Part shown: piece after piece, positions 2,464 to 33,002 of the stretch
Layout of the letters: the number at the start of each line of letters is the position of its first letter
How positions within the stretch are numbered: position 1 is the stretch's first letter
IMG/VR virus record: IMGVR_UViG_3300045988_021759
Span: 1-54,448 of that record
Reading direction: 5' to 3' (one strand)
Length of the DNA: 54,448 nucleotides
Source: a virus
Position numbers and translations under genes: made by a program
Notes under the pieces: generated by a model
The model's database searches: none
What the model saw: only the letters and a program-made list of their open reading frames with translations
What the model was told of the DNA's origin: nothing

Positions 2464-2670
2464 TTAGTCCTCGGTGATAAGGTCTTCGCAGCCGGAATCA
2501 ATGAGCAGCTCCCGAACCTTGCTCTTCAGCTTGGCAGGAACCTCAGCAAAAGTCTTTTTGCCGAACATAATCTGCTGTGCCCACAGCATTGCCATCATGA
2601 ACGTACCCTCCTTTCCGAATAAAATTTTGCAAAGAAAATGAGCAAGAATGTCCACGGCCAACTTAGCCAT
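2464..2670 (-). CDS. Hypothetical small protein (XkdX-like position after the tail fibre)
   Basis: 68-aa ORF in the operon, overlapping the upstream gene by 8 nt. Confidence 0.5.
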   Translation of the reverse strand: MAKLAVDILAHFLCKILFGKEGTFMMAMLWAQQIMFGKKTFAEVPAKLKSKVRELLIDSGCEDLITED

Positions 2671-3133
2671 AAACTTCCTCGCTCATCTCTAACAAGCAGT
2701 CCGTCAGCATCTGTACCTGCTTCTGCAAGCCAGCGCAGGTGTCAACCAACTGCTTTATATCTGCAACGGCGGGCTTTTGCTGCCCGCCGTTGTCACTTGT
2801 GTTATCGCCGCCGGAGCCGGTATCCTCGCCGCCAGTGCCGCCGGGGTCGGGCTCCGGGTTGTCCACCGTTCCGCCCGCCTCCAACTGCTCCAGCAGCGCT
2901 CTGTATTCTGCCTCTGTGATTTCCTCAGCGTCAACCTCGCCGTCGTATACAGCAGCCTCCGGCGGCGTATTGAGCCACGACGGGTGATAGTACCCGCTGC
3001 AATCCCGCGGACAGATGAACTCTGCCTTTGCAGGGTCGCAGACAAGCATCACGCCATGCTTGGGCTGCCAGCGCAGAAACACGTCATTGACGTCCAGTAC
3101 CTTGCCATCTGCAAGGATTTTATAAAAAATCAT
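2663..3133 (-). CDS. Hypothetical protein with Gly/Asp-rich linker
   Basis: ATG at 3133 overlaps the RT stop (ATGA). MIFYKILADGKVLDV... Confidence 0.6.
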   Translation of the reverse strand: MIFYKILADGKVLDVNDVFLRWQPKHGVMLVCDPAKAEFICPRDCSGYYHPSWLNTPPEAAVYDGEVDAEEITEAEYRALLEQLEAGGTVDNPEPDPGGTGGEDTGSGGDNTSDNGGQQKPAVADIKQLVDTCAGLQKQVQMLTDCLLEMSEEVYG

Positions 3134-4638
3134 GCGTACACTCCTTCCATTCGGTATCCGTGGAACAGCCGCCAGTACAGGGACAGCATTCCTTTTCTGG
3201 TCCGGTATGCGTCGGCGTGATAGGAGTTGCCAAACCACGCAGAGAACGACGCGAAAGCATCGTCCAGCCGCATGACGCCGCGCTGAACCATCCTTGCGAA
3301 CTTCTTCAGTTTGCGCCGCATTCGGACGATGCCGGCCCGCACGAGGTTCTTCACCAGATGTCCAGTGTCCGTCACCTTATAATAGATTTGCAGGAACTTC
3401 ATACCCTTGGAGGCTTTTGTGATCGCCGTTTTCTTGGCGTTCATCGAAAGCCCAACCTCGGCCGCCTCGCTCTGGATAGTCTGACCAACGTGCTTCAGCT
3501 CCTCTTTCGAGGGGCCAGCAGCCATGGTGTCGTCCATATACCGCTCGTAGGCCCGGACGCCCAGCTTGTCCTTGACGGCATGGTCAATCCCATTCGGGAT
3601 AACCAGCGCCATGGTCTGCGATTCTTGGCTGCCCAGCGTCAGACCAACGCCTTTATGCCGGCGCAGCTGCTCCGCTTTTGCCGCTCGTTCCGCTTCATCG
3701 GCAATTTCATGCAACTCGTTTTCCTGATACATCCGGGCGATCTTCATGCCAAGGCCCTGAAGCATCCGGTCAAGCCGGATTTCTCGGAATCTTTTCAGGC
3801 AATCGCTGTGCCGGAGGTGGTCAAAGAACTTTGTGAAGTCGCCGGTCATAATGAAAAAGCCGTTGCCGTATTTCGCGGCCAGCTCTTTCAGGAACATTGC
3901 CAGCCGGTTCCGGGCATCTGTGACGCCCTTTCCCTTAACGCTGGCCGGGTTATCTCGAATCAGGGTGCGCTCTGTCAGCGGCACAAGGCAGCTGTCACAA
4001 TAGCAGCCCTGCACAACGCGGCAGTCAATCATGACTGCATGGATCTCGCGCAGCTTGCCGCGCTCATGTAGCATGATTCGTCGGATTGTGGCATCGACGT
4101 TCAGTTTACCCTCCAGCAGCGAATCTTTCAGCCGTTTCAGCTTCAGGATTGCGTGGAAGATGAAGCGCTGCACATTGCCCTTCCACTCCACGCCCTTCCG
4201 GCGCTTCTGCAAGGACTTCATCAGATTTTGGATGGTGAACACGCTGCGAAAATCGCCCAGCGGGGTCACATCCTGCAACCGCTGTTCCCGGCTCTTTACC
4301 CGGTCCAGAGCTTTGATACGCAGCTCCGCATAGGGAGTGCGCGGCTCCAGCGCGGTTTCTATCTGCTCCCGGACAGGTTTCCCATGCCAGCAGCAGCGGC
4401 GGGCTGCATCGTTGGCGGCCTTGGTCAGCAGTTCCAGATCAATGCTGCCGTTCTCTCGCCACGTTCCGCGCGCCCGCGCTTCTCGTTTTGCGGCTTTCCG
4501 AGCTTTACTTCGCTCTATCCTAGCCATGATTTGTTCTCGATTGGTCAAAGAATCTACGCCCTTCCTGCTACTTATAGTGTGCATTCTAAACAGGTTTGCG
4601 AAGCGGTGATGAAACAGGCCCAGCACATGACCTGCCAT
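3130..4638 (-). CDS. DGR-type reverse transcriptase (exact start uncertain: 4638, 4584 or 4527)
   Basis: RYMDDTMAAG (YxDD) motif. LTLGSQESQ resembles the DGR-RT GxxxSQ motif. Sits 160 nt downstream of TR. Confidence 0.85.
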   Translation of the reverse strand: MAGHVLGLFHHRFANLFRMHTISSRKGVDSLTNREQIMARIERSKARKAAKREARARGTWRENGSIDLELLTKAANDAARRCCWHGKPVREQIETALEPRTPYAELRIKALDRVKSREQRLQDVTPLGDFRSVFTIQNLMKSLQKRRKGVEWKGNVQRFIFHAILKLKRLKDSLLEGKLNVDATIRRIMLHERGKLREIHAVMIDCRVVQGCYCDSCLVPLTERTLIRDNPASVKGKGVTDARNRLAMFLKELAAKYGNGFFIMTGDFTKFFDHLRHSDCLKRFREIRLDRMLQGLGMKIARMYQENELHEIADEAERAAKAEQLRRHKGVGLTLGSQESQTMALVIPNGIDHAVKDKLGVRAYERYMDDTMAAGPSKEELKHVGQTIQSEAAEVGLSMNAKKTAITKASKGMKFLQIYYKVTDTGHLVKNLVRAGIVRMRRKLKKFARMVQRGVMRLDDAFASFSAWFGNSYHADAYRTRKGMLSLYWRLFHGYRMEGVYA

Positions 4639-4797
4639 GAAAGAATCGTCCCGCCGCCCCGCTCAGGGACACCGATACGGTGCGCCAGCCTTAAAACAGG
4701 CCAGCCATCAATTTACCGCCGTTTCAGACGGAAGGTTGCACGTTCCTTCAATATTCTCTGGATATTTTCACCCTTATACATGGTTACTTTCAAACAT

Positions 4798-4922
4798 TGA
4801 ATCCGGGGCAGAACGCCGTTATTGTTCGTTGCGTTGTTGTTGTTGCCCACATTACCGTTGTTGTTCACATTGTTGAAGTTGGTAGAGTTGGACACCGAAG
4901 CATCGCGAAGCCAATACCACCG
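4798..4922 (-). repeat. DGR template repeat (TR)
   Basis: 125 bp collinear with VR (offset +1121). On the coding strand it is AAY-rich (translates ...NSTNFNNVNNNGNVGNNNNATNNNG...). Confidence 0.9.
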
Positions 4923-4957
4923 GCAAAGCCTAAAACAACGTGCCACCATTGGAACCA

Positions 4958-5788
4958 TCATTTCAGCTTCCCGAAGCGCTTCTTGTCAGAGCTGCGCAGA
5001 CCGGAAAGGAGCTTGATGCACTCATTGATCTGCCCCGCCCACTCGTCCATCGTATTTTCGCTGTAACACATGACGTTCCACAGCGCATACAATGGCCGCT
5101 GCAATCCGTTCAGATTGTCGATTGCGCGTTTGAGGTACTTATCCCGCGCCTCATACTGCTTTCGCGTCGTGGGGAAATTGTCGTTGCCCTGCAATGTGCA
5201 GTACAGCGCATCGTCCACAAACTGCAAAATCTGGTCGGACAGGTGGTCCTTATATTCCAAAGGTACGGTGCAGATTTTGGAGTAGGTGTATTTGTGCAGC
5301 TCTCGCATTTTGTTCAGAAACATCCGGTCTTCCGAATATTTCAGGTCAAACGTCTTTATCATGGGAACCTCTCGATCGTCCTCAAAGTGTGCAGCGCCGT
5401 GGAGCAGGGCCAGCTCCTTGTTCACAAGGTCTGCCCACTCCCGGATGCCGCCCTCTTTGGAATCGAACAGGCTCCAGTATACGACGAGCGGTTTCTGAAG
5501 CGCAACCAGACATCGGATGGAGCGCTCAAAGAGCTTCCGCCGGTCTGCTCGACCGGTCTCCGTCCTACTGTCGGCCTCATTCGCCATGATGGCCGAGTGG
5601 TATGCGCTGGTGGTCAGCTCCATCAACCGAGGCCGGACAAATTTCTTGTACCGGGCCGGAATATGGTCTGCCCGCTGCGCGGTCAGCTGCACCAGCCTTG
5701 CGCAGTTCATTTCAAACTCCATCGTTGACAGTCTGCGATTTCGTGCGAGAACCGACACATTATCACCTCCTCCACGATAAAATATCAT
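4958..5788 (-). CDS. avd: Avd-like DGR accessory protein, about twice the usual length (start possibly GTG at 5758)
   Basis: Located between VR and TR. Two successive helical halves each carry an Avd-like pattern (IPARYKKFVRPRLMELTTSAYHSAIMAN... and VPLEYKDHLSDQILQFVDDALYCTLQGN...). Confidence 0.6.
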   Translation of the reverse strand: MIFYRGGGDNVSVLARNRRLSTMEFEMNCARLVQLTAQRADHIPARYKKFVRPRLMELTTSAYHSAIMANEADSRTETGRADRRKLFERSIRCLVALQKPLVVYWSLFDSKEGGIREWADLVNKELALLHGAAHFEDDREVPMIKTFDLKYSEDRMFLNKMRELHKYTYSKICTVPLEYKDHLSDQILQFVDDALYCTLQGNDNFPTTRKQYEARDKYLKRAIDNLNGLQRPLYALWNVMCYSENTMDEWAGQINECIKLLSGLRSSDKKRFGKLK

Positions 5789-5830
5789 AAAATCCGGTAA
5801 AATGGAACCTATTTTAGAGAATTTACCGCG

Positions 5831-5898
5831 AGGCGGCTTCGCCGCCTAAGGATTATTCTCGTAAACGGCATCTAGTCTGGGCGGACTACGCCGCCCAG
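5831..5898 (-). other. Two GC-rich hairpins immediately downstream of VR (DGR target-recognition hairpin and/or terminator)
   Basis: ctgggcgg-actacg-ccgcccag (5877..5898) and aggcggc-ttc-gccgcct (5831..5847). Confidence 0.6.
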
Positions 5899-5911
5899 AT
5901 TTTTCCAGATT

Positions 5912-8900
5912 TTATAGATGAAGCCGGGGCAGAACGCCGCTATAGTTCGCCGCGTTGGAGTCGTAGCCCACAAAACCGCCGTTGCCCACATTGACGAAGC
6001 CGGTAGAGTAGGACACCGAAGCATCGCGAAGCCAATACCACCGCGCCCTTACCCATGCGTGTCCATTCCAGAGATATCCCACATTACTATCAGCAGAACA
6101 AATCCATACATCGCCCTTCTGGGGGTTCTTGGGCGCGGTGCTGGATACAGTGAAATTCACGCTCTGCGCCAGCGTATAGCCCGCAAACTTGATGCGGACA
6201 CGGTCAGATGTGAACCACGGAATCTGCTCGCCACAGTACACAAACGGCTCCGTATTGGTTCCGTTCATCTCGCGCATGGAGGGCAGATAGACCTTATCCT
6301 CGGATTCCAGAATACCAGCCGTGCCCGCGCCGTAATCCACGGACGATATATGAACGGAAACCAGCATCCGGCGCAGAGCCGAAGGCAAACCGGCCAGATA
6401 GCGCTTCTGGAGCCAGCTGCGCATCTCGGATGCGGGCCAGCCTCCAGCGTTGCTGTTGGTCGGGTTCATGCGGTGGTAGCCGTTCAGCAGACCCGCGTGA
6501 ATCAGGTCGATGGAGGTCGTACCGCCGCCGGTCTTGGTTGCGCCGCCGGTGCCGATGACCTCCAGATAGCTTTCCTCACGCGGCCATGCTGCCATCTTCA
6601 GGCACTCAGTCTCACCGAGGTCGTCTTTCCAGAGCTTGCACCGGTACAGGAAGCCGGTCGCAAAGTTCTTGCCGTCATTGTCGCAACCCAGCATGAGGGT
6701 CGCGTCAGATGCCGTGTCGATGGTCTTGGTCAGCTCGCGGGAAATGATGTCGTCGCCGTTCGGGTTTGCGAAATAGACGAACAGGTTCCGGCTGCCCTTG
6801 GCATGGCGCAGAACCACCAGCTCGCGGTACTGGTCGGACACATACTGTGTGCCAATGCCGGAGATGGTAGACAGGCCCGTGCCGCGACCATTGTTCACGG
6901 TGTTGGTGGACCACTGGACGGCCGTGCCGCCGCTGTATTTAACCTTGAAGCCGTGATAGCCAGTCTTGGTAAAGCAAGCCGCCACACACGACTCTGCCGT
7001 CGGCTGGTCGAATACGCAGTCCACAACCAGCGTCCAGCCGGCGTCCTTGTCCATGATCTTCACACCGGTGTCTTTGGAGGTCTTGCCGTCCAGCTCCATA
7101 TTTTCAGCCAGCAGCACAGATTCCACGTTGTCGAACTCCGGCTCATAGCCCATGGTGAACGGAACGCGGGTCTTGATGTTGTCCTCTGTGAAATAGAGGG
7201 CAGACCGTCCAGACTGCCGGATGCCGTACAGCTGCGCAAAATTCAGGTTGGAGAGATCATCACCGAAGTTCGGCAAGGATCCTTCAATCCAACGCGCATA
7301 GACGTCCATATTCTCCCGGACGTGCGCTGTGGACTTGTCCCAGCCGTTGAACAGACGATAAATGAAGTTTCCTTCCTCGTCCGTGCGCTCCGGGTCGTCG
7401 GGCGGTACTGCCTCGGTGTCATAGTCTACGGTCTTTGTGCCTACAACTACGCCGGTCTGCGAGTACCAGCGCACCGTATAGCGCTGCGGAACGCTGGTAT
7501 AGGCGGCCTTGACGGTCAGCTCGGACAGCACCTGCGTCAGAACAGTATCCCATCCAGAATAGGTGAACACTTCCGCCTGAGTTGCTTCTCTGGTCGGAGT
7601 ATCCATCAGCCCGGTTGCCACCGGGTCAGGGCAGGTCGCGCCGCGGTCAACGAGGATTTCTGCCGGGGAGCCATCTTTGAAGGTCAGCTTTGTCCCGTCA
7701 TAATCGCAGAACGTCACCTTGTACTGCTGCACGGTCCCGCCATAGGTCAGGGCCAAATCGGGCCACGCTGCGGTGTACTTTTCCACCTCAGCCTGACGAA
7801 TGACGGAGGTATAGACTTTGCCAGACAGCGAGGACTGCTGGACTTCCAGACCGTTTTCGTCGTAGCCGCCCATGCCCAGCAAACGATTCATCAGGTCTGT
7901 GCCGGTAAGCTGCCAGTCGATGCCCACAAGGCGTACCGTGTAGAGCTTGGCCGCTGCGTTGACAATATCAAGCGCAGCCGGGAACGGCGTGTTCTCGTGG
8001 CGCAGACCGGTCAGGTTTGCGTAACCGTCCGCCACCTCAAAGGTCTTGATGTTCTGCATATTGCGCAGCGTCAGGCTGACCGGGCGCTCCAGATAGCAGG
8101 TTTCCAGCGCAGAGCCAGCAGCAAAATTGACCGCGCTGACCGGCGTTCCCTTGAAGCTGGCGACTTTCAGGGCCACACAGCCGGACACGTCCACCGGTGC
8201 GGTCAAATTCGGGCAATGGTCGATTCGCAGCTCTTCCAGCACGGCCAGCGCCGAGAAATCCAGCTTGATAGAGGACGTCAGGTTGACGTTGGAATAGCCG
8301 TCCGCGTCGCTGCCAATGACGATGGAACGCAGCTTGGTGGCTGCCGAGAAGTCAGCCTGATTGGTGTAAACGCTGGCGATGCCCTCCACAGCTTCCAGCA
8401 TGGATGCCGAATAGATGTAGATTTCGGTATCATTCAGCGCCGTGTCCTTGCTCATGCTCAACGTCACCGGCTCGCCGCGCTTGCAACGCTGCTGCTTCAG
8501 GATGGAGCCGAACAGGATAGACACATACAGGTCAGAGTACGGCGTGATGGTGATAGCGGCAATCTCGCCGGTGGGACTTGCGAAGCCGCGCAGGGTGATC
8601 TTGTCGTTCCGGGCCGCCGCCGTATTCCATTTGGAGGCGAAGTAGATACTGTTGTACTTCAGGAAATAGTGACGCTGAAGCTCTTTCGTGCCGTTCATCA
8701 TGGGGATAAACATGGTGATGGCCGTGCCGCCCTCTTTCAGATCCTCATAAGGGCGGATATACTTGCGCCGCGCATCTGCAACCAGCAGACGTGCCGGGCG
8801 GAGCTTCTGGTAGGTGTCAAAGGCAGCGTTCAGGCGGTCGGCGTCGAACAGCTCCGTCAGGGTGGCAACCATCGTGTTCAGGCGGTCGGTCAGCAGGTCT

Positions 8901-11900
8901 CGGACGTTGGCCCACAGAACAGAATCCTGTGCGTTGAAGACGTTGCCGCCGTTCAGCTGGTCGGTGTCCTCCATGCCATAGTCCAGCGCGAGGTCGCCCT
9001 CGTTGTTGTTGCCCATGGCAGTGTCCATATCGTAACCGAAGCAGTAGTCCCAGATGGGATGCTCTGCCGTCACGTCATGGCAATGCGGGAACGTGTTTTT
9101 TGCGCGGTTGTCCGGCATAGTGAAGAACGAGGTGAACAGGTAGTGGTACAGGGTGGACTTGCTCTCAAAGTGCAGGTCGAACTCGTTCACGAACTTGGCA
9201 GCGCGGTATTCTGCCGTATCATTGGAATAGGTCACGCCTCCGTACACCACCGGGCTGCTCAGGGCTTCGCCGGTCGCCGCGCTGCGGTCGGTGGAATACA
9301 CCCACTTGATAACATCGCTCCACGCCTTCCGGGCCACGGCCTCGTCACAGCCATCCGCGATGTAGCGGAAAGACAGCGGCGCATTGGGGTTGTCGTCGCT
9401 CTCCCAGCTGGAGGCGTCTTCTGCACCTTCATAGCCCTTGAAACGGTTGTAGACGTGGGTGTTATTGCACAGCTCCACGATGCACTCATTGGGGCGCTGG
9501 GTGCTGTCAAGACCCTGCGCCTTTTTGTCTTTCTTCGAGTTGCCGAAATCGCCAACGCCGTAGAAAATCCACTGACCCTGCGTGAAGCCCTCTTCCGCGC
9601 TCTCGTTATACACGAAGATAACGCAGGGGTGGAACTCCATCGTGTCGCGCACCTTGGGATTCGCTGCGCGAGCCGCCCGGATATACGGCTGGTACTTGTT
9701 GAACAGCTCCGCCAGCATGGCGTTGTTCATATTCTCCGAAGAGGCAATGTTCAGCTTGACGTTGAAGTAGGTTTCGCCCATGGAACCGTCCGTCATGTCA
9801 TAGCTGTCGGCTTCAACCGTCAGGCCGTGTTCATCCGTATAGACGAACTTGCCCTTGCAGTCAAAGTCCATGTTGCGGCCCGCCTTGCCGTAGGCATTGG
9901 AGCTGGTGCCCTGCCCGCGGTGAACGACGCTTTCGTTCTTCCAGCAGTCTTTTGCCCGCGCACCATACAGCAGGTGTTCGACGCTGGATCCGGAGACCTT
10001 ATCGTTTTTGTCGGTGGTGAAGCGCGGAACCCGCAGTTTGATGACGCGGAGACCGGGATTTTTCTTCGCCAGATTGTTGATATACGCCTCGTCAATGGAT
10101 GCTGCATTCCAGTCGGTGATAATGTTGCCCGCGCCGTCGTCCACGCTGTTGCCCTCATAGCGGGCAATCATCTCGTCCGGGTCGGGCGCATCTGCGATGT
10201 AGTTGTCCATCATGTCCGCGTCGCCGAGGCTGATGTCGTAATACTTGCAGCGGTACAGCCAGACATCACAATCCGGGCTGCCGATGGTCAGCGGCACCGG
10301 GGTGCGCTGGGTCAGGCGGTCGCCCTCCGAATAGGTGGCAAACCGGGACGGAATGCCCTGCAAATTCAGGAACAGCTCGCTATTCTTCGTCCGGCTGGTG
10401 ATGTTGTAGCACAGCTCAGTGTACTCGCCCTCGCAAACGAACTGGCTGATGCTGGTCTGCTCGGTGGAGAGGGTCACTTCCTTGGCGTTCACATCCAGAC
10501 CGATACCGTCCGAAAGACACTGTGCAATCACAGCGTCAAACTTGCGCGCGTTCTTGGCCGTGTAGATCATCTTGAAAGATGCGCCGTATGCCTGAATATT
10601 GGACGAGCCGAACAGATTAAAGTTGATGGTTGCCGTATGGCCCGCGCGGACAACAAAGGCCGTGTTGCCGTCGCTGTCCTGCTGAAAGCCGCCGTTGGTC
10701 CAGTCGAAATCTTTATCCACGGTCAGAGATACGCCGTTGGATTCCCATGTGTCGCGGTCTGCTGCGGAGTTGGAGCGGCCCGACGGGTCAAAGTCAAACT
10801 TCGCGTCCACGTTGGCCGGATGGATGTCATAGCCCAGCGCGGTGGCCGTGTAGGTCATGGTGACGGTCGTTTCGCCGCAGGTCAGCGTCAGGGTATGCTC
10901 GCCCTCAGAGCGGGGCTTGTATGCCCACGACTGCAAGCTGCGGCCAACGGTCAGCGTAGTTTCCACGCCGTCAATGGACTGCTTTACAGTCGCGCTTTCA
11001 GTGGAAGGGTCATAGACCATATACTGAAGTGCAGCAGTCATATACACGCTGCCAGAAGGCTTCTTATCCTTGACCGTAATGATAGGGACATTGCTGGAGC
11101 TGTCCACGACCGCAATGCAGAAGTGGATGGTCGGGCTTTTGATTGTGTTCCCGCTGGCGGTCGTAGTCGTATAGATGTCGATGTCGTGAGCGCCGTGGGA
11201 ATTGATGGTCAAGCTCTGCACGAGCTGGCGGCCAGAGTATGTGGTGGATGCTTCCGCCACCTGCTTGCCATCCACGAGGAAGTGCGTGGTCTTGCTCATG
11301 CCGGAGCCGACCGGAGTGTAGGTGATGCGGAACGCCGTGCCCACGGTGTACAGGGTAGACTCCGACAGCGTAGCAGTCACAGAAACAGTCAGAACAGAGA
11401 TATTCCATGTCTTGGAACCGGTCGCGCCGTTCTCGTCGGTGACGACGACGCGCACCTTGTTATCACCGGCCACCAGCCACGCGCTGGGGTCAAAAGTGAT
11501 TTTCTTGTTCTGCACGATGTTGGCCGTGGCCACCTGCTCGCCGTTGACATAGTATGCAGCAGCGCCTCCAAAGTCAGGGTCAGTGTCGGTAAAGGTGTAG
11601 GACACCTCCACGCCCTGTCCCTGTGCGACGGCAAAAGACAGCGCCTTTTCACCGTTGACGTAGGTTTCGTTGGTCAGGGTGACACCGGAGGAGCCACCAG
11701 AACCACTTCCACCGCCGCCGGGGATGTACACCGGGTCAATGACGTCTTTCTCGTTCTCGTCGTACAGATGCAGGTAGTAGGTTTCCGTGTCGTAGTACAT
11801 AGAGCTGAACGCCAGCCCGCCGGAAGCCTTGATGGGCAGCATGATGGTGCCGCCGTTGGTGTAGGTGATCTTCAGGCCATCATCCACGGACTGCACGTCC

Positions 11901-12598
11901 TGAACAACGCCGTTCTCGATGATTTCCTGAAACTGGGCCAGTGTATTTGCTGCTGCGGTCGCCTGAAGCTCTGCGGTCTTTGCAGATGCAGCGGACTTCG
12001 TGGCCGCGTCGGTTGCGGTTTTGACATTTGCAGCAGCATCGGCAGCGTCAGACGTTGCCTGTTCAGCTGCGCTCTTGGCCTCGTTTGCCGTCGTCTTGGC
12101 CTCACCAGCCGTGGTGGTTGCGGTGTTTGCAGCTTCGACGGCCTTGTTGGAAGCGTCCGCTGCTTTTCCTGCCGCCTCCTGTGCAGCACTCGCAGAGGTG
12201 GAGGCTTTAGATGCTTCGTCCTCAGCCTTGGCCGCCGCCGTGCTGGCCTGAGATGCAGCAGTTTGGGCCGTGGAGACCATGCCCTCCGCGCTAGAGGCCG
12301 CTTTCTTCGCGTCGGCGGCATCCTGCACGGCGGTCTTTGCAGCGGACTCGGCGGATGCGGCTTTTACTTCAGCGGATGTTGCCCGCTCTTCGATATTGCC
12401 AACAGATTCCGAGACCTGCTTTGCTGTCGCCGCCGCTTCTTTTGCAGCAGCTTCGGCGCGGTCTGCGTCACCCTGAACAGCGTCTTTCAGGGTTTTGACC
12501 TTCATGTTGTACGTTTCGCCATCCGAAGAGATCAACAGCAGGTCATCGTCCAGAGCTTCCGTCGCAGTAGCGAAGTCCTGAATACGTTTTTCAGCCAT
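5912..12598 (-). CDS. Giant tail fibre / receptor-binding protein, DGR target (2,228 aa)
   Basis: Follows the tail-tip gene (TAAATG junction). Ala-rich coiled-coil N-terminus. C-terminus ...WYWLRDASVSYSTGFVNVGNGGFVGYDSNAANYSGVLPRLHL contains VR. Confidence 0.85.
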   Translation of the reverse strand: MAEKRIQDFATATEALDDDLLLISSDGETYNMKVKTLKDAVQGDADRAEAAAKEAAATAKQVSESVGNIEERATSAEVKAASAESAAKTAVQDAADAKKAASSAEGMVSTAQTAASQASTAAAKAEDEASKASTSASAAQEAAGKAADASNKAVEAANTATTTAGEAKTTANEAKSAAEQATSDAADAAANVKTATDAATKSAASAKTAELQATAAANTLAQFQEIIENGVVQDVQSVDDGLKITYTNGGTIMLPIKASGGLAFSSMYYDTETYYLHLYDENEKDVIDPVYIPGGGGSGSGGSSGVTLTNETYVNGEKALSFAVAQGQGVEVSYTFTDTDPDFGGAAAYYVNGEQVATANIVQNKKITFDPSAWLVAGDNKVRVVVTDENGATGSKTWNISVLTVSVTATLSESTLYTVGTAFRITYTPVGSGMSKTTHFLVDGKQVAEASTTYSGRQLVQSLTINSHGAHDIDIYTTTTASGNTIKSPTIHFCIAVVDSSSNVPIITVKDKKPSGSVYMTAALQYMVYDPSTESATVKQSIDGVETTLTVGRSLQSWAYKPRSEGEHTLTLTCGETTVTMTYTATALGYDIHPANVDAKFDFDPSGRSNSAADRDTWESNGVSLTVDKDFDWTNGGFQQDSDGNTAFVVRAGHTATINFNLFGSSNIQAYGASFKMIYTAKNARKFDAVIAQCLSDGIGLDVNAKEVTLSTEQTSISQFVCEGEYTELCYNITSRTKNSELFLNLQGIPSRFATYSEGDRLTQRTPVPLTIGSPDCDVWLYRCKYYDISLGDADMMDNYIADAPDPDEMIARYEGNSVDDGAGNIITDWNAASIDEAYINNLAKKNPGLRVIKLRVPRFTTDKNDKVSGSSVEHLLYGARAKDCWKNESVVHRGQGTSSNAYGKAGRNMDFDCKGKFVYTDEHGLTVEADSYDMTDGSMGETYFNVKLNIASSENMNNAMLAELFNKYQPYIRAARAANPKVRDTMEFHPCVIFVYNESAEEGFTQGQWIFYGVGDFGNSKKDKKAQGLDSTQRPNECIVELCNNTHVYNRFKGYEGAEDASSWESDDNPNAPLSFRYIADGCDEAVARKAWSDVIKWVYSTDRSAATGEALSSPVVYGGVTYSNDTAEYRAAKFVNEFDLHFESKSTLYHYLFTSFFTMPDNRAKNTFPHCHDVTAEHPIWDYCFGYDMDTAMGNNNEGDLALDYGMEDTDQLNGGNVFNAQDSVLWANVRDLLTDRLNTMVATLTELFDADRLNAAFDTYQKLRPARLLVADARRKYIRPYEDLKEGGTAITMFIPMMNGTKELQRHYFLKYNSIYFASKWNTAAARNDKITLRGFASPTGEIAAITITPYSDLYVSILFGSILKQQRCKRGEPVTLSMSKDTALNDTEIYIYSASMLEAVEGIASVYTNQADFSAATKLRSIVIGSDADGYSNVNLTSSIKLDFSALAVLEELRIDHCPNLTAPVDVSGCVALKVASFKGTPVSAVNFAAGSALETCYLERPVSLTLRNMQNIKTFEVADGYANLTGLRHENTPFPAALDIVNAAAKLYTVRLVGIDWQLTGTDLMNRLLGMGGYDENGLEVQQSSLSGKVYTSVIRQAEVEKYTAAWPDLALTYGGTVQQYKVTFCDYDGTKLTFKDGSPAEILVDRGATCPDPVATGLMDTPTREATQAEVFTYSGWDTVLTQVLSELTVKAAYTSVPQRYTVRWYSQTGVVVGTKTVDYDTEAVPPDDPERTDEEGNFIYRLFNGWDKSTAHVRENMDVYARWIEGSLPNFGDDLSNLNFAQLYGIRQSGRSALYFTEDNIKTRVPFTMGYEPEFDNVESVLLAENMELDGKTSKDTGVKIMDKDAGWTLVVDCVFDQPTAESCVAACFTKTGYHGFKVKYSGGTAVQWSTNTVNNGRGTGLSTISGIGTQYVSDQYRELVVLRHAKGSRNLFVYFANPNGDDIISRELTKTIDTASDATLMLGCDNDGKNFATGFLYRCKLWKDDLGETECLKMAAWPREESYLEVIGTGGATKTGGGTTSIDLIHAGLLNGYHRMNPTNSNAGGWPASEMRSWLQKRYLAGLPSALRRMLVSVHISSVDYGAGTAGILESEDKVYLPSMREMNGTNTEPFVYCGEQIPWFTSDRVRIKFAGYTLAQSVNFTVSSTAPKNPQKGDVWICSADSNVGYLWNGHAWVRARWYWLRDASVSYSTGFVNVGNGGFVGYDSNAANYSGVLPRLHL
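5919..6043 (-). repeat. DGR variable repeat (VR), covering roughly the last 43 codons of the tail-fibre gene
   Basis: 20 mismatches to TR, all at positions where TR has A on the coding strand. The 3' end cggcgttctgccccgg is invariant (IMH-like). Confidence 0.9.
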
Positions 12599-14758
12599 TT
12601 AAGAATTGCCCTCCTTTTCGGTTTCGGTCGTTTTATCATCCGTCCCAGTGTCCGGGTCGGTTTCGGTGTCCTTGTCGCCAGACATTCCTTTCAGCAGAGA
12701 GAGGATGCTGTCCAGCGTTCCCTGTGCGGCTGTCAGCTTTTCGTCCATTGCGGCCAGCGAGGTGGTGTGTCCATCCACCGTGGCGTGAACTTCGGCCATC
12801 TCCGCGGACTGGTCTGCGATGGCCTGTTTCAGCGCCGTCACATCGGTCTGCATTGCAGCCAAACCAGCCGACTGGTCAGCGGCAGATTTCTTCAGCGCTG
12901 TTGTGTCAGCCTGAACATTGTCCAGAACTTTCCGGTCTGCCGTCTGCACATCCTGCACAGCTGTCAGCTTTTCGTCCATTGCGGCCAGCGCAGCAGCATT
13001 TTTGTCTACCACAGACCGAATACCAGCCGCAGCGGCCTTGATATCCGAAAGGGCCGTCTGCACATTAGCCAACGTCGTTTTGATATCCGCTGCCGATGTT
13101 TCCAGCCCCTCCAATGTAGTGCGCTGTTCTGTGAGAGCCGCCTGAACATCTTTGACAGACTGAAGCAGCTGCGGGAGGTTTACGGCATCTTCACCTTCGC
13201 CGCCCTCCATGGACTTCAGTTCTTCCGCCAATCTGTTCACCTCCGTGGCAATTTCATCCGCCTGTTCAATGAGGACGGTTTTCTTGATGCGGTATTTCTC
13301 CACCTCATCGTCATAGAAGATGGCATCTTCCATGTGGCCGGTTTCAGGGTCACGCGCCCGCATGGCGATATAATCATCGGAATACTGCACCTCTGCGCGG
13401 GACACCGGGGCACTCCGCGCACCGGTCATCGACTGCGTTGCAACGCCGCTGGTGGAGTTGCCGGTCTTTGCGACCAGCAGACCATCATCGGCAGACATCG
13501 TAACGCCGCCATAGTCAGCGCTTGCCTCCAGAAATACCTTATCGCGGTTTTTATCGCGCTCTGTCAGATACGGATACTGCCGCGTCGCTTCGGTGTTCGT
13601 CGGGGCACTGATGGTGTTGGAATATCCAATGCCCAGCAGCGCGTCCATAGAATAGATAGAGCTGTGAACCTTGTCGCCGATTTTGACTTGATCTCCCAGT
13701 TCTGTGGCCGGGTCAAACACCGCGTCCGGGGCCGTGAACGGCTCATACTCGATGCCGTGCAGCATCGAATACAGGTCATTGCAAATGCCCTGACAGGAAT
13801 AGGGGCAGTTGTCTACGGTGATTTCAAACCCGCTGTCGTCGCCCCGCGAGTAGGCGTTTCCGTCCTCGTCCGTCATGGTGACTTTGGACACCACAAGCCG
13901 TTTTCCAGTCTCGACATCTCCCCCCACAAACGGAACATGAATAAGGCCCTGTTCAGCTTCTACCGCGCCGGTCTTGTCATAGACCAGCAAAAAGCCATCC
14001 GCCGTGACAATGCGGTTGAACTCGTGGTCCACGACTGGATAGACCTTCGGAACCAGAGAGCCGACGCCGCTGCCGATTTCCGGGGTCTGAATCTCGCTGT
14101 TGCCGGTGGTCAGCTTCCACGCAAGCGTGGAGCCGTCGCCGGTGATGATGTCGTTGAACTTCTCGTCCACGACGTGGTAGTTTTCAGCCGGCGGCGCTGT
14201 CAGTGTCACCAGCCGGAGTTCGCCCTCGTCGGTGATGGTCCAGTTGCCGCCGTTGCAAGCGCCAATCCAGCCCAACACCTGCTGCATGGTATATCCTTTC
14301 GGGAAAGGGACCATGTAGTTCATGCCGCGGTTGATGCGGGTGCGCGGGTCAATCGGAACGCCGATGCGATACGCAATTTCCTGCACAACAACCGCCATAG
14401 ATTTGGGCCAGTCACTTTCGCGGTCCGAATCGTCAACCATCGCTTGCGAGGTCTTCAGCATCGAATCATAGCAGGAGAGCGTATACAGGTTTCCGACGTT
14501 CTTGCAGGTATCGACCCAGAACTCACCGAATGGAAGAACTTCTGTTCGATTTGTGACGTCCAAATCCGTGAGCTGCGCGATGATGCGGACCGATGCAGCT
14601 TCCGGGATTTCCTCGCCGTCCTCCAGCAGCACATCCAGTTTCAAAGACGCTGCATTGCAGTTGCCAATACTGAGCGGTTCCGTTGCAAGGCTGTGACTGA
14701 TTTGTGGCGCAGAAATACGGTAGTATTCTTTGCCCGCAATGACGGCGCGGGCGTTCAT
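12599..14758 (-). CDS. Tail tip/baseplate protein (Dit/Tal-like) with C-terminal coiled-coil repeats
   Basis: 719-aa ORF between the TMP region and the fibre. Repeated AAMDEKLTA.Q... segments. ATG has no adjacent SD. Confidence 0.7.
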   Translation of the reverse strand: MNARAVIAGKEYYRISAPQISHSLATEPLSIGNCNAASLKLDVLLEDGEEIPEAASVRIIAQLTDLDVTNRTEVLPFGEFWVDTCKNVGNLYTLSCYDSMLKTSQAMVDDSDRESDWPKSMAVVVQEIAYRIGVPIDPRTRINRGMNYMVPFPKGYTMQQVLGWIGACNGGNWTITDEGELRLVTLTAPPAENYHVVDEKFNDIITGDGSTLAWKLTTGNSEIQTPEIGSGVGSLVPKVYPVVDHEFNRIVTADGFLLVYDKTGAVEAEQGLIHVPFVGGDVETGKRLVVSKVTMTDEDGNAYSRGDDSGFEITVDNCPYSCQGICNDLYSMLHGIEYEPFTAPDAVFDPATELGDQVKIGDKVHSSIYSMDALLGIGYSNTISAPTNTEATRQYPYLTERDKNRDKVFLEASADYGGVTMSADDGLLVAKTGNSTSGVATQSMTGARSAPVSRAEVQYSDDYIAMRARDPETGHMEDAIFYDDEVEKYRIKKTVLIEQADEIATEVNRLAEELKSMEGGEGEDAVNLPQLLQSVKDVQAALTEQRTTLEGLETSAADIKTTLANVQTALSDIKAAAAGIRSVVDKNAAALAAMDEKLTAVQDVQTADRKVLDNVQADTTALKKSAADQSAGLAAMQTDVTALKQAIADQSAEMAEVHATVDGHTTSLAAMDEKLTAAQGTLDSILSLLKGMSGDKDTETDPDTGTDDKTTETEKEGNS

Positions 14759-14826
14759 GCTGAAGCGTCCGCGAGCTGCAAGCTCTGTCCAGTTGTTCGT
14801 TCTGTGCCTCGTGACAGCTCACCTCC

Positions 14827-15204
14827 TTACTGTTCTGTCATGTTGAATGCCATGCCCACATAGTAGGTTTTGCCGGTTGCCTTGTCGTACCGCTGCGCAC
14901 CAAAGGGGCGGTTTGCGCAGTAGTACGTTTTGGTCAGGTAACGGCCGGCATCCGGGTCCAGCAGCGTGGCCTCGAAAAAGGTCTGCTTCAGGTCTTTCGA
15001 CAGCTGGGCAGCAACCTCTTCCGGGATGTCCATTAAGGTCACGCTCCACTTCATCTTCGCGCCGATTTTGTTTCGCACCATCAGCGCATCCAAAGTGTTG
15101 CGGCCAGACTTCGAGGAATCAACGTCGCTGTCTGTTGGGGTCAGCCCGCCCTCTGCCACCCACTTTGTATAATCATGGCCCCCGATTTTGAGCATCGGTT
15201 TCAT
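14827..15204 (-). CDS. Small tail component (function unknown)
   Basis: 125-aa ORF directly after the tape measure gene. Confidence 0.55.
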   Translation of the reverse strand: MKPMLKIGGHDYTKWVAEGGLTPTDSDVDSSKSGRNTLDALMVRNKIGAKMKWSVTLMDIPEEVAAQLSKDLKQTFFEATLLDPDAGRYLTKTYYCANRPFGAQRYDKATGKTYYVGMAFNMTEQ

Positions 15205-15219
15205 AGGGTCTGCACCTCC

Positions 15220-18200
15220 TTATACTTCCGCAGGTGTCAGCAGCGGCGACGTGCCAAACATCCGGGTCTTGCGGTTGATATAGTCCACGGTGTGCTGTGC
15301 GAGACCGTCTGCATCGACGTTGACCTCCGCTCCGCTGTACTGCTCAACAGCTGCGCAGATGCTATTCGTCGCGCTGCCAATGGCCTGAACGATGGTGCGG
15401 GTCGTCTCGTCGTTCGACGCCTGAATTTTTTCCAGCACACCACCGGAAGAGCTGTTCTTTCCGCCCTCCACGCTGTACGGTGTGACCGTGCCAGTCGCCA
15501 GCGCCGGGATGGAGAATCCTGCGTTCTGCGTGATTTCCGTCAGGCGGTCCAGCAGGTTGGTAAAGCTGTCGGCCACCTTGTCGGAAAACTGCGTCAAAAC
15601 ATTGTCCATGCCCTCAACGATGTCTACTTTGCCAGAAACCTCGGACAGCAGCGGAGTGTCGCTGTCAGCCAGTGTTCCGTCTGCTTCCGCAGTTCCGGCC
15701 TTTACGGTGTCCACCAAATCGCCCATCTGGTCCTTTGCACTGGACAGCAGCGCGGGCATAGCATCTTTCATGCCCTCGTCAATGCCAGCGGGCAGGTATG
15801 CGCCGATTTCGTCTGCCATCAAGGTGGACGGAGAGTGAATACCGAAGAACTTTTTGAAGCCGCTGACAATGCCGCTGCCGACCTTTTTCACGCCGTTCCA
15901 AACGCCGGAAGCCACATTCTTGATGCCGTTTCCGATGCCGCTCACAATGTTTTTGCCGACCTCGACAGCTCCAGACACAGCACTCTTCGCACCGTTCCAG
16001 ATGTTTTTCACAGCATTGCCGACGCCCTGACACACATTGGAGACAGTGTTTTTGATGGCGTTGAACGCATTGTTCACGCCATCTCTAAACCAATCGCATT
16101 TTTTATATGCGACCGTCAGGCCAGCGCCCAACGCGCCGACAGCAGCTACCGCGATTCCGATGGGGCCACCAGCGGTCGCCAGACCAGCCAGCGTAGTGCC
16201 AAGGCCGCCCAGCGCGGAGCCAGCGGCGGCAGCAGCACCGGAAAGGGCCGTACCGACAGAACCGGCAACGCCAGCAGCGCCGGATGCCAGCGCACCCAGA
16301 CCACCGCTCACGACAGAGCCGATGGAACCGACGCCTGCACCAATCGTGGAGATCAGCCCGGATAGGCCGCCGCCCACAGTCGAAGCGATACCGCCGACCG
16401 TAGAGCCAACAGAACCGAGGATGCCGGACAAGCCGCTGCCGACGGTCGAGGCGATGCCCGACAACCCGCCGCTGAAAATAGAGCCAAGGTTCGAGAACAG
16501 GCCCGACGCACCAGACGCAATGCCGGAAAATCCTTTGCTGAAGATGGAGCCGATGTTGGAGATCATCGACCCTGCATTGGACGCAATGCCCGACAATCCG
16601 TTGCTGAAGAAGCCCTTGACAGAGTTCCACAGGCCAGATGCGCCGGAGGAAATGTTCTTAAACCCTCCGCTGAACAGATTTTTGATGCTGCCCAGCAGCC
16701 CGGAGGTATTGTTCTTGATTCCAGACAGACCGTTTTTGAACAGGTCGCCCAGATTCGACATGAACGAGTTGCCTTCGTCGGTCGTGCCGGAGAACATCTT
16801 CTTAAAAGCGTTGCCTACATTCTGGAGGAAACTATTTGCAGTCTTCTGGATGTCACCAGACCCGCCACCAAACAGCTTTTTCAGCCAGTCAATGAGGCCG
16901 CTGCCCCATTTTTTCAGTTCATCAAAGCCGCCGGACAGAAGCTCCAGAATCTTTCCGGGGATGCTCGAAACAAGCGTCCAGAGGTCAGGCAAACCGCCCT
17001 CCATGCCTGTTTTGATGCTCCCGGCCAAGCCCTTGCCAGCATTCTTCAGAATGGTGGTGTTGCTCGCAGAGGACAGATTGCTTTTCAGGCCGGTGACGAT
17101 GTTCACCGCGGCTTTTGCCATGCCTAAGAAGCCCTGCTCGTCGTATCCGGCGTTCAGCGCGTCCAGAGAGTCCGCCACAAAACCGGTGACGTTGGTTCTG
17201 AAGTTCTTGTCGAGGGAGTTGAACAGACCAAGGGCCACGTTTTTGGTCACGGTTGCCCAGTCGCCGCTCTTCACCGCTTCGACAATGCCCTTGATGTTGG
17301 AGATGCCCTTGCCGGAAGAAAGTGCGTCGGAAATACGGTTCATGTTGCTGGTCAGTGCGTCAACCGTTTCATCAACGAAGCCCTCTCCCAGCAGTTCGCC
17401 CTTGCCGTCCAGCGCATCATCTGCGCCATTGTACACAGCCAGACCCAAATCACCAGCTGCATCCACGGCCATATCCGCATTGCCGGTAATACCTCCTGCA
17501 ACACCGGCGTCAAAATAATAGCCCAGTTTTTCGCCCTCAACGGAGGGAGAATGGATGCCCAGTGCATCCTTAAAGGCGTTAATCAGCCAGTTGGATGCCT
17601 GTCCAGCAGCTTCAGACAGCTTTTTCAGCGTATTCTTGATGCCGTTGTAGATACCGAGGATGACGTTTTTGCCGACGCCCAGCCAGTCGATGTCCGTGAA
17701 TTTTTTCTTTGCCGTGTCTCCGATAGACTTCAACGCAAGTGGAAGTTTCGTCTGCAAGGCCACGAAGCCGTTGTAGATAAACCCGATAACATTTTTGCCT
17801 GCTGCTGCCCAGTCGATAGAGGACAGCTTCTTTTTCGCTGCGTCGCCAATGGATTTTAAGGCAGTCGGGAGTTTGGTTTGCAGCGTGACAAATCCGTTAT
17901 AGATAGCGCCAATGACGTTCTTGCCCGCGGTCAGCCAGTCGATGTCGGACAGCTTTTTCTTGATGGCCGCACCAATGGTCTGCATCGCAGCCGGGAGCTT
18001 AGTCTGCAAGGCCACGAAGCCATTGTAGATGGCCCCGATGATGTCTTTGCCGACCTGTACCCAGTTCGTCGCCTTGAGCTTCGCCACGATCTGACCGGGC
18101 AGTTCTTTCACGGCACTCACCACGGTGGAAATGGCCCCGGTGATACCGTTCTTCAGGCCCTCCATGATGAACTTGCCGACCTCGGCCATCTTCTTGGATG

Positions 18201-25497: not shown

Positions 25498-25620
25498 AGG
25501 ATGCCTCCGGTTCAGCAACTAAGCGTTTTAAGTCGTCGCTCTGACTTGTTGCCCCTGCCTTGTTAAGTCCGCAGGTAGACTGATATTGCGCCCTCTTTGG
25601 CCTCATGCGGCCGCAGCGGG

Positions 25621-32660: not shown

Positions 32661-32713
32661 ACAAAATGAAACAGAGGGTTGTCCGTTGCTGGACAGCCCT
32701 CTGTTTTTGTTTT
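32661..32713. terminator. Very strong (14-bp stem) bidirectional intrinsic terminator between tRNA-Lys and the late operon
   Basis: Stem acagagggttgtcc/ggacagccctctgt, with T-runs on both strands. Confidence 0.8.
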
Positions 32714-32788
32714 GGTGCGCCCGGTGGGACTTGGACCCACGGCTTCAGGATTAAAAGTCCTGTACTCTACCAACTGAGCTACGAGCGC
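32713..32788 (-). tRNA. tRNA-Lys (anticodon UUU), 76 nt with encoded CCA; T-loop has C at position 55
   Basis: GCGCTCG-TA-GCTC-AGTTGGTA-GAGT-A-CAGGA-CTTTTAA-TCCTG-AAGCC-GTGGG-TCCAAGT-CCCAC-CGGGCGC-A-CCA folds as a cloverleaf. Confidence 0.8.
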
Positions 32789-32869: not shown

Positions 32870-33002
32870 AGCCGATGGCTGGACTTGAACCAGCACCACA
32901 AGAGTTTCAATCCATCCGGGGACAGGCCGGACAGGGCCGCTCTTGCGTATCGTCAATGTGACCCGCCTTAACTGGGCGGCGCTCTGCTTGAGCTACAACG
33001 GC
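32870..33002 (-). ncRNA. Aberrant 133-nt tRNA-like gene (anticodon loop CAGUUAA, about 66-nt insertion before a canonical T-arm)
   Basis: GCCGTTG...CATCGGC acceptor (one T-T mismatch). CCGCC-CAGTTAA-GGCGG arm. Insertion closed by CAAGAG/CTCTTG. T-arm GCTGG-TTCAAGT-CCAGC. No encoded CCA. Confidence 0.4.

Follow-up and report, generated by a model that had tools for sequence, protein, structure and literature searches.

A diversity-generating retroelement with a predicted tandem Avd protein and a giant target in the tail module of a temperate phage

Organization of the locus

The window analysed here is a 54,448-nucleotide (nt) stretch of viral DNA (IMG/VR record IMGVR_UViG_3300045988_021759, positions 1 to 54,448), which represents a temperate siphovirus-like phage of about 54 kb and carries a diversity-generating retroelement (DGR) whose genes all lie on the minus strand. 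Read along this strand, the cassette comprises, successively, a target gene ending in the variable repeat (VR), GC hairpins, an avd gene, the template repeat (TR), a spacer, and the reverse transcriptase (RT) gene. This is the order known from the phage BPP-1, and the original prediction, which had described a clean case of a known class of system with this canonical layout, is supported on both points. It is very probable that the cassette is a complete DGR, located in the tail module of a temperate phage of gut Clostridia, and that it is active at present or was so until very recently. Coordinates given below refer to the window and, within the cassette, to the minus strand (-).

The template and variable repeats

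The repeat finder returned a single repeat family, made of two collinear and ungapped copies of 125 nt that are 84% identical and whose similarity ends abruptly at both borders. The first copy, TR (4798..4922, -), was delimited by the repeat finder, the mismatch table and the comparison of related populations, and the second, VR (5919..6043, -), lies in the 3' end of the target gene (5912..12598, -; 2,228 aa). The two repeats differ at 20 positions, every one of which is a T of TR on the plus strand and hence an A on the coding minus strand, so that tabulation by TR base leaves none of the 20 mismatches at a non-adenine position. On the plus strand, the substitutions from TR to VR consist of 11 T>C, 7 T>A and 2 T>G. 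With 37 such positions among the 125 of TR, the chance of all 20 mismatches falling there is 2.2e-13, and the count and placement proposed earlier from a manual alignment thereby hold. A second or remote VR was looked for with the invariant 5' 33-mer and 3' 19-mer of the repeat, which occur nowhere else in the 54-kb window; the latter therefore contains one TR and one VR.

The sequence of TR, which includes NSTNFNNVNNNGNVGNNNNATNNNG, contains 15 AAY codons on the coding strand, in line with the AAY-richness noticed previously; 35 of its 36 in-frame adenines occupy codon positions 1 and 2, and no substitution of an adenine creates a stop codon. VR encodes target residues 2186-2227 and ends two codons before the stop of the 2,228-aa open reading frame (ORF) 5912-12598 (-), thus within the final 43 codons as stated in the original prediction, and the variable codons correspond to residues 2197-2220. 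The recodable part amounts to 33 adenines in 18 codons, or about 7e18 possible peptides, a figure from which three invariant adenines, two on the 5' side and one at the 3' terminus, are left out.

An 82-aa ORF that covers TR (4713-4961, -), starts by overlapping the avd stop codon (ATGA) and gives a weak DUF6273 match was considered as a gene and rejected, being TR read in the VR frame. An ORF over TR is called by gene callers in close relatives, and is 53 aa long or uncalled in distant lineages.

Variation among related phages

Relatives of the cassette were retrieved by exact-protein and pattern searches, which gave 18 close relatives with both repeats, and 19 loci once the related prophage L005 (GCA_965298765.1) is added. 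The VRs of the 18 close relatives are all distinct, and the 19 loci contain 19 distinct VRs versus 11 distinct TRs. Among the 18 relatives, the mean VR entropy reaches 1.24 bits at the positions where TR has an adenine, versus 0.16 elsewhere, and pairs of sequences differ on average by 20% in VR and by 6.8% in TR, the median for the 300 nt upstream being 13%. What variation VR displays outside the adenines consists mostly of TR polymorphisms copied by the cognate VR, at positions 15, 34-36, 42, 69, 72, 74, 90, 95, 96 and 102; for instance, TR has either AAC or GCG at positions 34-36, and six genomes carry the TR variant ACCGGCTGGGCGGGC. The remaining non-adenine differences are singletons in L019 (position 2), L022 (position 3), L020 (position 111) and L029 (position 42), together with a one-codon deletion in the VR of L041 relative to its own TR.

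The same holds over larger distances, since A-specific TR/VR pairs were found in all 25 related loci, whose Avd proteins range from 29 to 99% identity, with 267 of the 296 TR/VR mismatches located at A and the rest made of indels or anchor divergence. An RT frame is present in 24 of these 25 loci, none being found in L017, and the target frame spans 2,046-2,896 codons where the contig is complete. VR is thus hypervariable and TR stable, and since the VRs track the private non-adenine changes of their own TR, a recent transfer from TR to VR has to be assumed in each lineage. At the sequence level, this pattern is the one predicted by unidirectional, adenine-mutagenic transfer from TR to VR, and the comparison between genomes takes here the place of the read mapping suggested in the original prediction.

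Three of the related loci depart from this picture. In L024 (IMGVR_UViG_3300045988_016921), TR equals the VR of the same genome except for the terminal GGATTC/GGCTTC marker described below, with A-to-N substitutions at 17 former adenine positions. Possible causes include homing of mutagenised cDNA into TR, VR-to-TR gene conversion, and mis-assembly; if real, the DGR has here largely destroyed its own template. In L027, the VR (L027:3309-3433) breaks off after about 66 nt and is followed immediately by the downstream hairpin, and together with L041 it provides examples of VR decay and indels in this group of phages.

One may ask whether the cassette of the window, although intact in appearance, has fallen silent, the VR differences then reflecting past activity or recombination among older VR alleles. 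The comparison on which activity is judged is one between genomes, and the overwritten TR of L024, the truncated VR of L027 and the deletion in L041 are signs of decay in relatives. Set against this, RT, Avd, TR, the spacer RNA, the invariant VR end and the hairpin are all intact in the window, all 18 VRs are distinct with much more similar flanks and nearly identical TRs, and the copying by each VR of the private non-adenine changes of its TR requires a recent transfer per lineage. A silent cassette is accordingly regarded as improbable, and a currently or very recently active one is retained.

The reverse transcriptase

The RT gene (3130..4548, -) encodes 472 aa from a conserved TTG codon at 4548. 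Its ORF (3130-4638, -) extends further upstream to ATG 4638, a start codon with which the protein would have 502 aa. The conserved RT N-terminus, MTNREQIMARIERxK, aligns with the starts of the homologues and begins at TTG 4548 rather than at ATG 4638. A start at TTG 4548 is further favoured because the spacer RNA (4536-4801) would otherwise fall within a coding sequence beginning at 4638, and TTG 4548 is therefore probably the start codon.

As regards the class of the enzyme, the protein matches Pfam RVT_1 with 59 bits and phrog_1423 ('Reverse transcriptase') with an E-value of 9e-49, and its best match in the PDB is the Bordetella phage bRT (8ub7, E 1e-11), a group II maturase ranking behind it. 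The two motifs reported in the original prediction were confirmed in ORF 3130-4638 (-), namely the catalytic YMDD and LGSQESQ, which fits the DGR-type motif 4 [I/L/V]GxxxSQ. Weak matches to NCBIfam models of other RTs might suggest a group II intron, retron or defence RT, with TR and VR as an unrelated duplication. Such matches (21-51 bits against cut-offs of 200-550) are far below threshold in each case, with 51 bits against 300 for the group II model TIGR04416, 26 against 235 for retron_St85, and 21-28 against 200-550 for the Drt models. In addition, an Rfam scan of the window at gathering scores brought up no RNA family of group II introns or retrons, RT-2 RNA adjoins TR, and mismatches restricted to adenines, as well as the behaviour of the repeats in the population, have no explanation outside a DGR. 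This alternative can be given next to no credit, and the grouping with intron or retron RTs that had been named beforehand as a possible refutation did not materialize; by sequence, the RT is assigned to the DGR clade and not to the intron, retron or defence RTs.

At RT residues ~55-130 (window ~4250-4475, -), the conserved basic N-terminal helix is separated from the RT core by about 70 inserted aa. This insertion is common to the window and L005 and absent from the other tandem-Avd lineages and from the Roseburia phage Shimadzu.

The spacer RNA

The interval between TR and RT, estimated at 160 nt in the original prediction, measures in fact about 250 nt when counted from TTG 4548. It is covered by a structured RNA (4536..4801, -) that matches Rfam family RF03077 (RT-2 RNA) with 67 bits, versus a gathering score of 40, and an E-value of 4e-13 over the full model (1-222). 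This RNA extends exactly from the last TR bases to the RT start, and is found at the same position in L005, L006 and L044, as well as in the Roseburia phage Shimadzu, where the match reaches 145 bits. The motif AAGTAACCATG.TATAAGGGTGAAAA is conserved in the spacer across lineages, and an RNAalifold analysis of five spacers gave a weak consensus, with a covariation term of +1.36.

The motifs RT-1 to RT-19 were described by Weinberg 2017 as orphan motifs located near RT genes; one of them, RT-10, corresponds to the spacer of BPP-1, and the other RT motifs were speculated to serve other DGRs (PMC5737381). On the basis of its position and conservation in the sequences compared here, RT-2 is assigned to the TR-RT spacer of a DGR clade. 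An orphan Rfam motif would in this way be attributed to a DGR spacer, which fulfils the prediction made with the RT-10/BPP-1 match (PMC5737381).

The invariant end of VR and the downstream hairpins

The last 20 nt of VR (5919..5938, -), GGCGTTCTGCCCCGGCTTCA, resemble the IMH (initiation of mutagenic homing) element of DGRs and are invariant in the 18 related VRs. They differ from the IMH*-like 3' 20 nt of TR (4798-4817, -), which carry GGATTC, by one fixed base, C instead of A. This last mismatch, CCCCGGATTC in TR versus CCCCGGCTTC in VR, is identical in all 18 relatives, and the opposition of GATTC in TR and GCTTC in VR is found again in almost every tandem-Avd lineage, including those with Avd identities as low as 29%. 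Being fixed across relatives, the terminal A/C difference would represent a marker of the IMH*/IMH type rather than a product of mutagenesis. The 20 mismatches of the original prediction consequently stand as regards their number and their location at adenines, but not as 20 events of the same kind, the alignments pointing to 19 mutagenic ones and a structural one (GGATTC/GGCTTC). In BPP-1, IMH and IMH* differ by several bases, in comparison with the one fixed base observed here.

The two GC hairpins previously noticed after VR were both recovered. Hairpin 1 (5876..5899, -), which is GC-rich, starts 12 nt past the target stop codon and is formed by TCTGGGCGG, the loop CGTAGT and CCGCCCAGA, and hairpin 2 (5831..5847, -) by AGGCGGC, GAA and GCCGCCT; the DNA fold of the region has a z-score of -4.0. 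A GC-rich hairpin is encountered 20-55 nt past VR in 16 of 20 lineages. Its stems vary from one lineage to another (GGGCGG, GCCCCG, GTCCGG, GGCTGG, GGTCGG) and its loops are alike (CGTAGT, CGTAAGT), which indicates compensatory change. Hairpin 2 is kept in close relatives only. Neither hairpin contains a T-run, and their interpretation as intrinsic terminators was rejected. The asymmetry between IMH-like and IMH*-like ends, combined with a GC hairpin downstream of VR, corresponds to what characterizes DGRs, and hairpin 1 is likely, by analogy with BPP-1, a candidate element for target recognition.

By analogy with BPP-1, the cassette would work as follows. A transcript comprising the 3' end of avd, TR and the RT-2 RNA would be bound by the RT together with the Avd-type protein, and the RT would copy TR into cDNA, faithfully except opposite adenines, where any base may be inserted. 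This cDNA would then replace VR at the 3' end of the target gene, under the guidance of the GC-rich IMH-like end and of the downstream GC hairpin, while the fixed A/C difference between the ends of TR and VR would shield TR from becoming a target itself. The outcome would be the recoding of 18 codons in the C-terminal DUF6273 domain of the target.

The tandem Avd protein

The ORF that the original prediction had called 'avd-like' belongs to the Avd family but encodes a fused double copy rather than a single Avd. The gene (4958..5758, -) specifies 266 aa from GTG 5758, in an ORF open to ATG 5788; the GTG start is supported by the length of the homologues (264-277 aa). Two basic domains can be distinguished, the N-domain (residues 1-122; 5393..5758, -; pI 9.3) and the C-domain (residues 146-266; 4958..5323, -; pI 8.8). 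The two halves are 26% identical by BLASTP (E 2e-13) and align by profile-profile comparison with HHalign over 117 columns (probability 99.4%, E 6e-22). The C-half matches the PHROG family 'Avd protein of DGR' (E 1.5e-9), and both half-profiles match the annotated single 136-aa Avd of the Roseburia phage Shimadzu with an E-value of approximately 1e-10. In the same line, the AlphaFold2 (AF2) model built from 21 sequences, with a predicted local distance difference test (pLDDT) of 89 and a predicted template modelling score (pTM) of 0.85, shows a pair of helical bundles with about 23 linker residues between them. Foldseek relates this model to the pentamers of the 23S-rRNA-IVS/Avd fold 2rld and 2gsc (template modelling (TM) scores of 0.82-0.86 over ~112 residues) and to the BPP-1 Avd 4dwl (TM 0.70, probability 0.98). 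An Avd-type accessory gene is thus present next to TR, as expected of a DGR, in the form of a fused tandem with two homologous domains per chain and 266 aa, and not of a canonical single domain of ~110-140 aa. Taken together, sequence and model indicate that two Avd domains, each a four-helix bundle, are covalently linked in the accessory protein as a tandem, which results from an ancient duplication kept as one frame.

This arrangement is widespread. Clustering at 90% identity gives 31 clusters of fused Avd, the most distant at 31% identity to the query and the complete ones all 264-279 aa in length, and the tandem Avd is found in 41 IMG/VR contigs. A library clustered at 50% identity, with 1.8 billion representatives, yielded 93 clusters with E <= 1e-30, nearly all of which match the full profile in one stretch. 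On the other hand, the double Avd gave no match by tblastn, and the whole cassette none by blastn, in 50,697 GenBank phage records; Avd and its family profile gave nothing meaningful against the PDB sequences, and no mention of a fused Avd was found in the DGR literature searched. The tandem-Avd clade is large and previously undescribed, and its accessory protein is the only feature that departs from the canonical cassette.

One could object that the 'double Avd' actually corresponds to two genes, the working Avd being the C-half alone and the N-half a decaying or regulatory copy in frame. An internal ATG at 5362 is preceded by a plausible Shine-Dalgarno sequence (GAGAGG), the PHROG Avd model matches the C-half only, and a few database proteins of 133-137 aa match one half only. 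Yet about 90 clusters at 50% identity keep the frame unbroken, as do sequences of only 29-31% identity, and the internal methionine is not conserved in P0022 or P0026-P0031. Besides, the N-half does not fall behind the C-half in conservation, in basic character or in its match to a bona fide single Avd, and AF2 returns a confident single model of two domains (pTM 0.85). Two separate genes thus appear improbable, and the fused protein is preferred.

To our knowledge, the BPP-1 particle is the only DGR particle to have been solved. In this particle, a 128-aa Avd forms a homopentamer, with bRT, Avd and RNA in a 1:5:1 ratio, and two Avd protomers touch the RT N-terminal extension whereas five touch the spacer stem-loop (10.1101/2023.10.23.563531). 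Since chains of two domains cannot place an odd number of identical bundles, such as five, in one homo-oligomeric ring, a different assembly would be implied here. In this context, it is conceivable, though the balance tips slightly the other way, that the fused double Avd marks a distinct DGR lineage, whose particle of RT, accessory protein and RNA is not built on a C5 homopentamer and which co-evolved with giant targets of more than 2,000 aa. The double Avd may form a pseudo-hexameric or pseudo-decameric ring, or else a heterodimer-like pair, in which one domain may bind the RT N-terminal extension and the other the RT-2 RNA.

The giant target protein

The 2,228-aa target begins with a coiled-coil region rich in Ala, continues with a large body and has DUF6273 as its C-terminal domain (residues 2049-2225), the latter recognized by Pfam with 47.6 bits, versus a cut-off of 23.5. 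Its size, thought unusual in the original prediction, is large but has precedents, with DGR targets of up to 2,697 aa reported by Wu 2018 (PMC5758913) and, for Hankyphage, a VR located at residues 2188-2225 of a large ORF (Benler 2018, PMC6199706). By tblastn, residues 320-1770 are 24-32% identical to giant 'hypothetical' proteins; these homologues of the body include proteins from Hankyphage-like Bacteroides phages, among which a 2,262-aa protein of BT-TP2 encoded directly upstream of a DGR RT, and a 1,673-aa protein of NatCom_3357, encoded after the tape measure protein, Dit and an 800-aa protein and before holin and endolysin. DUF6273 is known as a DGR target domain with a predicted C-type-lectin-like fold and with VR in its C-terminal part (PMC10743442, PMC11792537). 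From the Pfam match and the published models of other DUF6273 proteins, a lectin fold is also predicted for the C-terminus of the present target.

In terms of function, the ORF itself is confirmed and the label of tail fibre given to it in the original prediction rests on gene order, from which the target is probably a distal tail fibre or a receptor-binding structure. Another virion-surface adhesin, for instance for mucus or glycans, would imply that the DGR tunes adherence to the environment rather than host range. Every homologue is annotated as a hypothetical protein, the target contains Ig-like stretches (a weak Big_9 match), and Benler 2018, who assigned no function to the Hankyphage target, proposed mucus adherence (PMC6199706). 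Against this, the order tape measure, tail protein, giant protein and lysis genes is found both here and in NatCom_3357, the target homologue of L005 is fused to Prophage_tail (Tal) domains, and that of L006 follows Baseplate_J and gp48-like genes. An adhesin of this kind is hence considered unlikely, though by no means negligible, and a distal tail fibre or receptor-binding structure remains the preferred assignment.

Several points nevertheless weigh against the overall interpretation. The AF2 model of the last 269 aa of the target has a pLDDT of only 42, its alignment being composed of 36 sequences, mostly distant DUF6273 proteins of the Adlercreutzia type with a zinc ribbon, and hence does not confirm the lectin fold; nor was any solved structure or annotated phage protein found that would name the target as a fibre. 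As to the mechanism, the duplexes proposed by RNAduplex between the TR 3' end and the spacer for priming lie at different positions in each lineage, none of them being consistent. Activity in this genome is deduced from differences between genomes, and L024 reflects either a lapse in the protection of TR or an assembly error.

Neither the whole target nor a profile of its DUF6273 end gave anything meaningful against the PDB sequences. A stand-alone 294-aa protein (P0032), encoded on a 37-kb Logan contig, is over its full length 58% identical to the last 269 aa of the target, and may be a 'small' DUF6273 target such as those paired with large ones in the Faecalibacterium phages Lelie and CP11.

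An antisense frame of 2,981 codons (5918-14863, +) covers the target and the upstream tail gene in codon alignment with them, and was dismissed as a gene and ascribed to codon bias. It stays open because the sense codons TTA, CTA and TCA are nearly absent from the sense strand, with one occurrence in 2,947 codons, versus about 0.3% in the tape-measure gene.

The phage genome and its probable host

Besides the DGR, the genome encodes an integrase, an HTH (helix-turn-helix) regulator, RecT, a DnaB_2-type replication protein, RecU, a helicase-methylase, the large terminase, portal and head proteins, a 1,684-aa tape measure, a tail protein and an endolysin. The tape-measure gene (15220-20274) precedes the tail protein gene (12599-14758), which itself lies directly before the target gene. 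The close relatives are prophages adjoining SCIFF/radical-SAM genes, and the matches among metagenome-assembled genomes belong to Eubacteriales, Clostridia and Ruminococcus; a gut bacterium belonging to the Clostridia is the probable host. In L005 (L005:20051-20398), the prophage adjoins a tmRNA gene, which is a classic prophage attachment site.

A small ORF (2663-3133, -) overlaps the RT stop codon by 4 nt (ATGA) and encodes an acidic, Gly-rich protein of 156 aa. ORFs of 146-156 aa overlap the RT stop likewise in L001, L002, L005 and L006. The 156-aa protein matches no PHROG family and could be the product of a further DGR-associated gene or of a lysis-module gene. Elsewhere in the window, Rfam reports a tRNA-like match of 39 bits and 133 nt, possibly interrupted (32870-33002, -), just upstream of a tRNA-Lys(UUU) gene (32713-32788, -), only the latter of which is found by ARAGORN. 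Finally, the cis-regulatory motif GP20-b RNA was matched in the head-gene region (25520-25581, -; 39.8 bits versus a gathering score of 36.2).

Comparison with known systems and significance

With the BPP-1 cassette (mtd-avd-TR-brt), the present one shares the gene order, the mismatches restricted to adenines, the location of VR at the very 3' terminus of a gene of the tail module, the GC-rich IMH-like end, the downstream GC hairpin and the Avd fold, bRT (8ub7) being moreover the best PDB match of the RT. The BPP-1 target, Mtd, is much smaller than the 2,228-aa DUF6273-ended protein found here. The two systems also differ in their Avd, a single 128-aa protein assembled as a C5 homopentamer in BPP-1 (10.1101/2023.10.23.563531) and a 266-aa fused double one here, and in their spacer, which is RT-10 with 140 nt in BPP-1 (PMC5737381) and RT-2 with about 250 nt here.

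The DGR of Hankyphage (PMC6199706) and that of BT-TP2 resemble the present one by their giant target with VR at its C-terminal end (residues 2188-2225 in Hankyphage, 2186-2227 here), by a target body that is 24% identical over ~1,270 aa, by an RT gene directly downstream, and by their presence in temperate gut phages. Hankyphage differs in having a Bacteroidota host instead of a Clostridia one, in being Mu-like and transposable, and in carrying a small single Avd-like ORF near the RT; its C-terminal domain and RT are not closely related to those of the window, no Hankyphage RT being among the matches listed.

The closest annotated RT, with 34% identity, is that of the Roseburia phage Shimadzu (LR596903), which has an RT-2 spacer too (145 bits), the same order tail fibre-Avd-TR-RT-lysis, and a gut Clostridia host, but a single 136-aa Avd, a 431-aa target and a 379-aa RT. 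In the Faecalibacterium prophages Lelie, Roos, Pioen and CP11 (PMC11792537) and the tentaclin phages nd4/nd12 (PMC10743442), all of which are gut Firmicutes phages with distantly related RTs (28-31% identity), VR likewise lies in the C-terminal part of DUF6273. Their targets are, however, much smaller, or have VR near the N-terminus (target1 of nd4/nd12), and no double Avd has been reported for them; in addition, Lelie and CP11 have paired large and small targets, whereas the window has a single VR.

As a DGR, the cassette described here is a clean and ordinary gut-phage cassette among thousands catalogued. It nevertheless belongs to a well-populated natural series of 18 close relatives, each with a different VR, from which activity, the 3' boundary of information transfer and the co-variation of TR and VR can be read straight from the assemblies. 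In the case of the tandem Avd, the clade comprises at least 93 clusters at 50% identity and 41 IMG/VR contigs, and the two-domain protein offers a natural dissection of the roles of Avd in contacting the RT and the RNA, useful for engineering DGRs for directed evolution. If the fused double Avd did represent a distinct lineage, the Avd contacts that adenine-mutagenic reverse transcription really requires could be tested on this natural case.

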